Origin: Candidatus Iainarchaeum sp.
Lineage (GTDB): Archaea > Iainarchaeota > Iainarchaeia > Iainarchaeales > JAFCCJ01
Assembly (NCBI GenBank): GCA_043816965.1
Contig: JBDRHK010000005.1
Location: 1 to 13,322, forward strand
Direction: 5' to 3'
DNA length: 13,322 nucleotides
Shown: one piece after another, positions 9,001-12,000 of the stretch
Layout of the letters: every line of letters starts with the position of its first letter
Position numbering within the stretch: the stretch's first letter is position 1
Made by a program: the position numbers

Positions 9001-12000
9001 AATTTCAAAGGAAACATTGAATAATCTTTATTGGGATCGGCGATTGTGCGCTAGAGAAATTGGAGAAATCTACAACGTATCCCATTCAGTTATTTTAGAT
9101 AAGTTATACAAAAACGGCATAAGAACAAGGGATACTGGGGAAGCCGGAGAAATTTATCCAAAAACAGATTTCTCAGGCGATTTAGAAGAAAAAGCGCATA
9201 TGATTGGTTTCAGATTAGGTGATTTATATTGTATTCGAATGAGCCCAAGATTGGTTAGAGTTTCATCCAATACTACAAAAAAAGCACAGTTGAAATTGAT
9301 GAAGGATGTTTATGGGGGATATGGGCGACCTTGGATTAAAGAATATTCAGGCACGTTCAATTTTCACTGTCACCTAAATAACACCTTTTCCTTCTTAGTG
9401 CCTAAAAAGGACAGGATTGAAAGATGGATTCTTAAGAACAATAATTATTTTTGTGCCTTTTTTGCAGGCTATGTTGATGCTGAAGGAACAATTAAGATTT
9501 ATAACAAACGAGCCAGATTTAGAGTAGGCTCTTACGATAAAGGGCTTTTGAAAGATGCCTCTGGGAAATTGACAGAGTTTGGAATCAGGCACACTTACCG
9601 AATCGATTCCTTTAAGGGTAAGAATCAGAATAGTGATTTTTGGAGGATTGGAATATGTGAAAAGCAATCCCTATTAAAAGTTTTTAACCTAATAGGACCA
9701 TATATGAAACATGGGGATAGGCTGAAAGACCTTGAAAATGCCAAAGATAATGTTATTCAGAGATTAAAAAAATGAAGGGGGTGAAGCGGCTATGAAGTTT
9801 TATGTGACAACTGCAATAGATTATCCATCTTCTAAGCCCCATCTTCGGCCATGCCTATGAGAAAACGGTTAGCGATGTCCAGGCAAGATGGCACAAATTG
9901 AAGGGGGAAGAGGTATTTTTCCTTACAGGGACCGATGAGCATGGGATGAAAATCCAGCGTGCTGCTGAAAAGGAAGGGAAGAAGCCCAAGGAATTTGTGG
10001 ATGAAAAAACTGCACTCTTCAAGGAATTGTGCAAAAAATGGAACATTTCCTACGACCGCTTCATAAGAACAACAGATAAGCAACACGAGAAAGTCTGCCA
10101 GGAAATTTTCCAGAAAGTTCTCGATAAGGGAGATATCTATTTAGGAAATTATGAAGGGCTTTACTGCACTGATTGTGAAAGGTTTTATTTGGAGAAGGAT
10201 TTAATCGGTGGTTTGTGCCCAATTCATAAAAAACCTGCCGAGAATGTGAAGGAGCCGAGTTATTTTTTCAAGATGGGCAAATACCAGAAACAGTTGCTGG
10301 ATTATTTTGATAAGAATCCTGATTTCATTTCTCCAAGATCTAGGAGGCAGGAAATTATTAACAGGGTAAATGAAGGACTACTTGATTTAAGCGTAAGCAG
10401 GGCAACCTTCGACTGGGGAATCCCCTTATCCAACGATGGAAAACACGTAATTTACTGTTGGTTTGATGCCCTTCTCAATTATATTTCGGGAATTGATTAC
10501 GGTACAAAGAAGTTTGATAAATACTGGCCTGCCGATGTGCACAACATTGGCAAAGATATCCTCTGGTTTCACAGCGTTATTTTTCCTATAATGCTTTTCG
10601 CTGCCGGAATCGAGCCCCCGAAAAAAGTTTTTGTCCATGGTTTTATCAACACAGAAACCGGGGAGAAAATGTCAAAAAGTTTGGGAAATGTTATTGACCC
10701 AATTGCTTTGGCAAATGAGTTTGGCGTTGACCCTGTTCGTTATTTCCTCCTGCGTGAGATTCCTTTTGGCGAAGATGGCTTCTTTTCACTTAGCGGTCTT
10801 GCCACCAGAAACAACAACGAGCTCGCAAATGAGTTAGGCAATTTACTGAACAGGACAATTGTTCTGATTGAAAAAAACTACAAAGGAAAAATCCCGGCAG
10901 GAAAAACTGACTCAGAATTGCAGAAAAAACTGGATTTGAAAAAGATTGAAAAATTATTGGACAAGTTCGAACTGCACACCGCGCTCGGGGAAATTTTCGT
11001 ATTCATCTCAGCCTGCAACAAATACATCAATGATAAGGAGCCCTGGAAATTGAAGGGAAAGGAACTGGACAATGTCCTCTATGGCCTTGCAGATTCGCTC
11101 AGAATAATTTCCATCCTCATCTCCCCCTTTATCCCAAACAGTTCTGAGGAAATTAACAAACAATTGGGAGTAAATACAGGTTTACTGAAAGATTGTAAAT
11201 TCAATCTCCTTAAAGCAGGGACAAAAGTGAAAAAAGGGGAAGTTTTGTTTAAAAAAATTGAAATTAAGGAAGAAGTTGGGCCAAAAGCAAGGGAAATTTC
11301 GGTTACTGTTGACCCTGAAATGAAAAACCTGGATTTCAAATTGGTTGCGGCAGTTATTGAGGGGGTGAAGGTAAAGAAAAAGCACATGGGCCTTGAGAAA
11401 GCAAAAAAGGATGTTGTTGATAACACAGACATCCATAAGATTGAGAAGACAGATATTGTGAAAGGGTATTTGGAATTGTATGATGCAATTGGGGTGAAGA
11501 GAGAAGAGCATGCGGTAAAGAATCTGGTTGAGATTTCGAAAAAAGGCGGGAAACTTCCCACCATCAACACTGTTGTCGATTCCTATAATTTAGTTTCCCT
11601 TGACAAGCTGGTTATTGTCGGCGCGCACGATTTGGAAAAAATAAATGGAAATATCCGAATCAAGATTGCCAAGGGAGATGAACTCTACATCCCCCTCGGA
11701 AATGACAAACCAATGAAAATTCAAAAAGGGGAGTATGTTTTTGTTGATGATAAGGTTGTTTTATGCAGGCTGGATGTGAAACAGGGGGAGCATACAAAGG
11801 TCACCCCAACAACGAGGAATGTTTTCCTTTATGTGCAAGGAAATAAATACACCTCTCAAGAATATATTGAGAAAGCGATGAAAGAAGCCATTGATAACAT
11901 CACAAAATACTGCGGTGGAAAGGCAAAAAGCCTAAACGTCAAATAGAGTTCACAATTTTTTCGGTAACTTTTTTCGCGGCAACTAATCCTTTCCCATCCT

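Follow-up and report, generated by a model that had tools for sequence, protein, structure and literature searches.

A conserved site of probable +1 frameshifting within the HIGH motif of metS in Candidatus Iainarchaeum and its relatives, and a candidate stimulatory element at the ribosome-binding site

Organization of the metS gene

The window, that is the whole stretch of 13,322 nucleotides that was analysed, is numbered as contig JBDRHK010000005.1 and comes from Candidatus Iainarchaeum sp. (the source genome, G000), which belongs to a group of very small, uncultured archaea and whose assembly is 86% complete; the closest named relatives are titled Iainarchaeum or Diapherotrites. All features described here lie on the forward strand. 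The zero frame of the methionyl-tRNA synthetase (MetRS) gene, metS, starts with the ATG at 9792, reads MKFYVTTAIDYPSSKPHLRPCL and stops at TGA (9858-9860) after 22 codons, and the remainder of the enzyme lies in the +1 frame, which begins GHAYEK (GHAYEKTV) and continues to the TAG at 11944-11946, as an earlier note on this DNA had described. The cause of the break is a single extra base at 9846, within the HLGH (HIGH) motif. When this base is omitted, with CTTC (9843-9846) taken as one step, the reading becomes KPHLGHAYEK and the motif is whole, which is what the note had proposed for a +1 slip at CTT-CGG, and the joined MetRS aligns gap-free through the motif with the solved structure PDB 1a8h (residues 3-221, E 8e-74). 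Zero-frame codons 1-18 (MKFYVTTAIDYPSSKPHL; 9792-9845) supply the first strand of the catalytic domain and the first half of HIGH, both within this gap-free alignment, and the +1 frame (9847-11946) supplies residues 19-717 with the catalytic and anticodon-binding domains (PF09334, E 1.9e-95; PF19303). A B3/4 domain is fused at the C-terminus (11491-11916; PF03483, E 2.9e-23, residues 549-690 of the +1 segment). The HIGH motif together with the PF09334 catalytic domain and the anticodon domain identifies the product as a class Ia MetRS of the bacterial type.

The shift heptamer, CTT-CGG-C (9843-9849), comprises the P-site codon CUU, the skipped base 9846 and the first +1 codon, GGC. The zero-frame TGA lies four codons past CTT, and ribosomes that do not shift would release a 22-residue peptide. 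A stop interrupts the +1 frame at 9817, and the first ATG, GTG or TTG after it is the TTG at 9898 (residue 36), which is past the HIGH motif. The PF09334 profile detected one MetRS locus in the source genome, in agreement with the note, which had called it the only metS of the assembly. An exact look-up of the MetRS protein returned no identical entry in the protein collection, and an Rfam search of the window returned nothing relevant.

The extra base in independent contigs and in related genomes

Contigs from two public runs of different studies span the site (X1, 9762-9901; X3, 9750-9996) with no differing letters and no gaps, although one of the runs is possibly the source sample and most of the gene is covered only piecewise. 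A protein search of 215 genomes of the phylum gave matches in 175, and 90 loci were read directly, namely the best-scoring ones and all those whose match started at residue 10-18, minus G181, which starts at a contig end. Of these, 23 were broken and 66 were in frame, and G091 was dropped because of Ns. Another 47 matches span the N-terminus without a change of frame, which brings the scorable genes to 136, 23 of them broken and 113 in frame. The 23 shifted genomes are spread over seven families, and in all of them a functional MetRS needs the two reading frames to be joined at one conserved position. The earlier pattern search had selected for the letters of the site, and this concern is removed because a pattern that left unspecified the four bases separating the His codon from the Gly codon recovered the same 23 of 215 genomes and none besides, while a backward-pattern control gave none. 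A metagenome scan gave 14 loci, eight of them duplicates and six new, and the new ones together with the 23 shifted genes make up the 29 sequences tallied below. In the shifted genes the zero-frame TGA follows the shift site by 4 codons in 16, by 9 in 6 and by 29 in 1.

A single MetRS was found in each of five shifted genomes that are 94-99% complete (G084, which is 99% complete on one contig, G151, G102, G111 and G058), and the further matches in these genomes were weaker and were sized like other class I synthetases. The site-free search, the independent contigs and the single-copy metS thus support what the note had claimed, a conserved recoding site in an essential archaeal gene. Beyond the phylum, searches of two other archaeal phyla found the shift in 0/301 and 0/201 of the genomes sampled, and in 0/5 handles, with no positive control for in-frame genes of this type.

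Codons and tRNAs at the shift site

The general form of the site is CCY-CAU-CUU-Y-GGC, and the A-site codon is CGG in 21 of the shifted genes and UGG in the other two. Among the 29 sequences, CCC CAT CTT C GGC occurred in 25, T replaced the skipped C in 2, CCT replaced CCC in 1, and the metagenome locus L189 had CCC CAT ATT C GGG; as heptamers, these are CUU-CGG-C in 26, CUU-UGG-C in 2 and AUU-CGG-G in 1. Hence the site is not always CTT-CGG as had been thought, since two of the 23 genes have CTT-TGG-C and L189 has ATT-CGG-G. The fourth base was a pyrimidine in 29/29 and never A. A pyrimidine suits tRNA-Leu(GAG) re-pairing on UUY, the arrangement in prfB, and not tRNA-Leu(UAG) re-pairing on UUA. 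Of the assignment to the Ty1 type in the earlier note, the CUU-xGG-C shape and the rare Arg codon in the A site stood, whereas the fourth base did not agree with it. UUY is available for re-pairing in the +1 frame in all 29, and the fit is poor for L189, which has AUU in the P site. The tRNA-Leu(GAG) of G000 and that of G151 have a normal 7-nt loop. In G000, CGG is used at 2.2 per 1000 codons and AGG, the commonest Arg codon, at 23.2 per 1000. A lack of tRNA-Arg(CCG) was considered as a cause and was rejected, the tRNA being present in G058, a shifted genome; the match in G084 is not a tRNA, that in G102 was not called, and the tRNA lists of G084 and G151 are incomplete.

The three codons before CTT, AAG CCC CAT (9834-9842), of which CAT is the E-site codon, showed synonymous conservation as well. 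AAG was found in 18/19 shifted and 17/29 in-frame genes, CCC in 22/23 and 14/56, CAT in 23/23 and 44/66, CTT in 23/23 and 6/53, GGC in 23/23 and 21/66, and GCC at codon 21 in 12/23 and 9/61, respectively. Synonymous purifying selection at CCC, CAT, CTT and GGC gave p values from 4.5e-4 to 2.8e-14 against in-frame genes, in a comparison where kin are not independent. This site-specific conservation was confined to codons 15-21, and the next 105 codons past codon 21, where a 3' stimulator would lie, had no synonymous conservation at p<0.001. An internal Shine-Dalgarno sequence (SD) before the shift was not found in any of the 23 genes, where the 14 nt before CTT paired with the anti-SD at +0.9 to -3.9 kcal/mol. 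In the other genes of G000, CTT-CGG-C occurred in 0/21 cases and CTT-YGG-C in 5/68, compared to 11 expected (p=0.03, the fourth lowest among 49 first codons). The avoidance of the heptamer is thereby only weak. A scan of the other G000 genes for the same site gave nine loose candidates besides metS, none of them with the full heptamer.

A 5' element that accompanies the shift

Upstream of the start codon of metS there is a strong SD, GGGGGTGA (9777-9784), which is complementary to the 3' end of 16S rRNA, GGATCACCTCCT (taken from five relatives), and which is followed by the spacer AGCGGCT (9785-9791). All 23 shifted genes have GTGA, three bases and then GG(C/T), usually as GGRGGTGA-AGCGGCT(T)-ATG; the GG of the spacer is invariant in 23/23, and its distance to the ATG is 7 or 8 nt, so that the frame varies. 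The SD, which lies 18-26 codons upstream of the shift site, is present in 21/23 shifted and in 8/66 in-frame genes. The complete 5' element, by a pattern that was defined on the shifted genes themselves, is present in 23/23 and in 4/66 (G096, G077, G017 and G020), respectively, and of 13 independent pairs taken from the tree, about 12 had element and shift together and none had them opposed. The 5' element is gained and lost together with the extra base. A strong SD before a start codon occurs at only 17 sites in G000, and the spacer AGCGGCT follows none of the others. This SD-plus-spacer element of the shifted metS genes is new here. No stimulator had been identified when the site was noted, and this conserved element, which accompanies the frameshift and is able to pair with its site, is now a candidate. 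Two other roles of the element were considered and rejected: mimicry of 16S helix 45 by the spacer, because that helix reads GGAC/GTCC in five relatives, and coupling to an upstream gene, because a long frame on the same strand ends at most 40 nt from the SD in just 2/23 genes and several loci have only 130-350 nt upstream.

When the sequences were folded with RNAalifold, unaided, the 5' element paired with AGCC-C-CATCTTC, which are bases at the shift site and immediately 5' of it. In this consensus fold the SD pairs with CATCTTC (9840-9846), GGCT of the spacer with AGCC (9835-9838), and a G of the spacer with the C at 9839, so that the SD would be the 5' strand and the codons AAG CCC CAT would belong to the 3' strand of the proposed helix. 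Of the cells of the consensus helix, 96.7% were paired, compared to 47-65% in slid controls. Three pairs were changed on both sides and 3/500 shuffles scored as high, a measure on which related sequences can outscore such shuffles without any structure. The three compensatory changes come from two lineages only, G083 and G089; these carry AAA and CCT, respectively, the sole exceptions at the two synonymous positions that precede the E site, and both exceptions are matched on the 5' strand. A second register, in which CCAU is looped out, was 97.2% paired, with 17/500 shuffles as high, and it is dominant in G108, G089 and G086.

The energy controls were mixed. The median pairing energy between the 5' element and the site was -14.5 kcal/mol in shifted and -9.9 kcal/mol in in-frame genes, which favors the helix. 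Against it, the 5' region of the window itself folded no better than shuffles (z 0.26) and preferred a nearby copy of CCATCTTC, which is another register; the probability of the core pair exceeded 0.5 in only 15/29 sequences; in 0/23 genes did the 5' element have the shift site as its best partner; a median of 46% of synonymous variants would pair better, so the natural codons are not optimised for pairing; and a spacer swap control gave p=0.05. Taken together, we lean towards the view that the fold-back helix exists, and for its acting as a stimulator of the shift we regard the case as evenly balanced.

History of the shift

On a MetRS tree built by a quick method from 90 rows, 19 changes of the label shifted or in-frame are needed, with 13 of the changes forced by starred branches, and numerous shifted genes had in-frame sisters, from which they differ at 16-58% of synonymous sites elsewhere in the gene. 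The label was no more clustered than in shuffles (118/500). The tree does not give the direction of change; with the best tree rooted at its midpoint, one origin would need about 31 losses. A single ancient origin with many later losses is the best reading of this scatter, because 19 separate gains of the same site together with the same 5' element are implausible. Gene transfer likely also contributed, since the metS of the genus mate is not sister to that of G000.

How the shift may work

The best explanation overall, judging from the comparison of these genes, is that metS is very probably decoded by programmed +1 ribosomal frameshifting. While CUU occupies the P site and a codon that is presumably read slowly, the rare CGG or else UGG, waits in the A site, the peptidyl-tRNA-Leu(GAG) would re-pair on UUY, tRNA-Gly would then read GGC and HLGH would be restored, and ribosomes without the slip would terminate a few codons downstream. 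That it is the P-site tRNA-Leu(GAG) which slips from CUU to UUY we consider highly likely. The SD and spacer would fold back on AAGCC-C-CAU(CUUC) while these bases exit the ribosome, and the resulting duplex would adjoin the E site and could invade it. The internal SD duplex of prfB lies at the position where this fold-back duplex would sit; the fold-back duplex would replace the internal SD duplex, which is absent from the metS site. In yeast, CUUCGGC has been reported to be partly active as a +1 site, and an engineered upstream hairpin stimulates shifting there (PMC3639245). On 70S ribosomes, a hairpin placed upstream to mimic the SD duplex has been reported to stimulate +1 shifting at CUUUGA; invasion of the E site helps shifting, and a destabilised hairpin lost most of its activity (PMC6321510).

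Such an arrangement could also sense initiation. Since the ribosome-binding site itself would form the 5' strand of the helix, the next ribosome to load could mask the stimulator: with prompt initiation it would cover the 5' strand and remove the stimulator, and with slow initiation, when little charged initiator Met-tRNA is available, the 5' strand would stay free and the shift would rise when MetRS activity is short. The ribosome-binding site would thus double as a +1 stimulator, with negative feedback on MetRS through initiator Met-tRNA. Initiation-dependent shifting is named as a general class in PMC8211752. We offer this switch tentatively and think it rather unlikely.

Among the alternatives, the one that survives best is an unregulated leak, in which the same +1 slip occurs on a tolerated old insertion, the strong SD is retained only because more initiation makes up for the poor yield, and the helix is incidental. 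The 31 losses required by one origin on the best tree show that the shift is dispensable, a strong SD is rare in G000 and yet found in 21/23 shifted genes, and the energy controls of the helix are weak. SD strength, however, leaves unexplained the invariant GG of the spacer at 7 or 8 nt from the ATG, and also AAG and CCC on the 5' side of the E site, and a one-base deletion would repair the gene, yet 23 lineages retain the extra base. We consider the leak possible but on the unlikely side.

The E-site codon raises the possibility of autoregulation by MetRS, in which the invariant CAU is looped out as an anticodon mimic, and binding of MetRS locks the SD or alters the shift. CAU in 29/29 sequences, against 44/66 in-frame genes, and the register with the CCAU bulge, with its 97.2% pairing and its dominance in three genomes, would agree with this. 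RNAalifold favors the register in which CAU is paired to the SD, the covariation of the bulged register is weaker (17/500 shuffles), a 4-nt bulge differs from a 7-nt anticodon loop, and weak E-site pairing accounts for CAU equally well, all of which makes such a mimic improbable.

We regard as similarly improbable that the shift senses methionine, in that low Met would lower SAM, m1G37 would be lost from tRNA-Leu(GAG), tRNA-Arg(CCG) and tRNA-Trp, and the A-site stall would produce more slippage. G37 is present in tRNA-Leu(GAG) and tRNA-Trp of G000 and in tRNA-Arg(CCG) of G058, a Trm5-family gene is present in G084 and G151, and MetK is present in 19/23 shifted genomes; in addition, m1G37 is reported to prevent +1 shifting and its loss to stall E. 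coli ribosomes at CGG (PMC10275265). MetK does not discriminate, however, because the in-frame genomes of those families carry it equally often (f11 12/13, f12 22/23 and f14 20/23), and it was not found in G000, at 86% completeness. L189, moreover, uses AUU, and the 5' element is left unexplained. A link to SAM synthetase was likewise rejected, the archaeal type being found in 0/5 and the bacterial type not being discriminating. Methionine sensing is compatible with programmed frameshifting at CUU and the two are not exclusive.

An earlier change of frame at CCC-C, by a slip of tRNA-Pro or by slippage of RNA polymerase in the C run, would give P-I-F-G-H; CCC is found in 28/29 and all site variants are synonymous for I-F-G in the +1 frame, but such a change removes the first His of HIGH, which is kept in 66/66 in-frame genes, an in-frame IFGH occurs in 0/215 genomes, G089 has CCT and the run is of four C only, and we hold it to be very improbable. 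An assembly error, as the earlier note had already argued, a pseudogene or a four-base-reading tRNA, for which the 86% completeness of G000 leaves some room, is largely refuted and has next to no probability, given the identical letters in two runs, the break at the same position in 23/215 genomes, the long and intact +1 frames, the single copy in the 99% complete single-contig genome G084, the normal loop of tRNA-Leu(GAG) and the occurrence of three different quadruplets.

Comparison with known systems

The metS site resembles prfB (RF2; CUU_UGA with an internal SD) in that an essential translation gene is broken near its 5' end and in the re-pairing from CUU to UUY, the weak E-site codon and the duplex adjoining the E site, with the re-pairing and the duplex putative in metS. 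Retention of the frameshift is patchy in prfB, as it is in metS. The A site of metS, unlike that of prfB, holds a sense codon and the stop comes 4-29 codons later, and, with no internal SD in metS, the duplex would be mRNA-mRNA with the initiation SD as its 5' strand. The thrS operator of E. coli exerts feedback by a synthetase through the 5' structure of its own mRNA, and in this possible feedback it is like metS; it acts on initiation, with a true mimic of the anticodon arm and without a frameshift.

With the yeast +1 sites of Ty1 and ABP140 (CUU_AGG_C; PMC5009743), metS shares the P-site CUU, an Arg-type codon in the A site that is putatively slow, and GGC in the new frame. In metS, however, the fourth base is C or U with re-pairing on UUY, whereas Ty1 slips to UUA; AGG was found in 0/29 sites and is the commonest Arg codon in G000; and the Ty1 heptamer works alone, whereas that of metS seems to need the 5' element. 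The metS site is a member of neither type, because it fails a defining feature of each, and on the sequence comparisons it would work like both, as a distinct form of programmed +1 frameshifting. The engineered upstream refolding hairpins (PMC3639245 and PMC6321510) place an mRNA duplex by the E site, as is proposed for metS, on CUUCGGC and CUUUGA; those hairpins are synthetic or derived from viruses, stable and short-looped, whereas the helix of metS would be natural, weak and long-looped and would include the ribosome-binding site.

In archaea, the recoding described in the available portions of PMC8211752 and PMC5009743 comprises -1 shifts in Sulfolobus fucA1 and in magnesium chelatase and, in haloviruses, -1 shifts and a probable +1 shift in HSTV-2; these portions make no mention of a cellular +1 frameshift or of a synthetase frameshift in archaea. 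The cellular cases are -1 shifts on slippery heptamers in non-essential genes, whereas that of metS would be a +1 shift in an essential gene. An earlier report of the metS site was not found in the literature covered, with most subscription journals, and supplements, outside its scope. PMC3711429 classed an unnamed +1 'tRNA synthetase' cluster as phase variation, among genomes of 2010 that did not include this phylum.

A +1 shift that seven families have kept in an essential enzyme of translation would demonstrate recoding like that of prfB and Ty1 on archaeal ribosomes, and the helix, if it is a stimulator, would be a natural example of what only engineered hairpins had shown. If the initiation-sensing switch were true, metS would be the first archaeal cellular +1 frameshift and the first in an aminoacyl-tRNA synthetase, with a new feedback design. 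The metS site would also supply a 90-nt cassette for direct tests in reporters. The shift also explains why MetRS is annotated as truncated in roughly one sixth of the scorable genomes of the phylum.

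Relatives with unusual metS loci

Among the 215 genomes of the phylum, in which 23 loci carry the extra base in metS (shifted loci), a natural recent reversion pair is found in locus L023 of genome G096 and locus L119 of genome G097. These two loci are very close sisters, with about 0.02 changes per column each, and one of them is shifted while the other is in frame and yet has retained the 5' element, that is, the conserved Shine-Dalgarno (SD) sequence and spacer before the metS start. The 5' end of metS at locus L025 of genome G101 is unusual in another way: ACA stands where ATG is usual, the start of frame 0 has to be a GTG further upstream, and the +1 frame has no stop between the shift site and an ATG that lies 28 codons upstream of it.

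A strong SD ahead of a start codon is rare in the genome of the window, where it was found at 17 sites (on the metS contig and 15 other contigs). Despite this rarity, the 16S anti-SD is intact in the relatives.

The C-terminal domain of MetRS and the neighboring genes

MetRS carries a C-terminal B3/4 domain (11491-11916, plus strand), possibly an editing domain. MetRS forms of about 700 aa and of about 475 aa were both present among shifted as well as in-frame relatives and therefore the B3/4 domain is not tied to the shift. Downstream, aIF5A and an arginase/agmatinase-family gene (11939-13130, minus strand) are convergent with metS.

Upstream, a free-standing ORF of 362 aa with HTH and LAGLIDADG-like domains (8687-9775, plus strand) ends directly before the metS SD (9777-9784); a frame abutting the SD in this manner was seen at only 2 of the 23 shifted loci. 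An MCM helicase gene (4369-7911, minus strand) holds an intein that contains LAGLIDADG and HTH domains. Between these two genes lies a 775-nt stretch (7912-8686) with no listed ORF of 60 aa and no match to Rfam, in which two short TATGGGCTCGCTA repeats occur around 8020 and 8107.

Other observations in the phylum

Many tRNA genes of the relatives G084 and G151 (loci L221-L254) have introns, some of them long or unusually positioned, and because of these introns the ARAGORN anticodon calls were misleading. The SAM synthetase belongs to the bacterial type; it was found in 114 of the 196 genomes of the order, and in no genome of families f2 (0/7) and f9 (0/22). Frames of 830-960 aa, which are perhaps fusions, contain a few of its matches.
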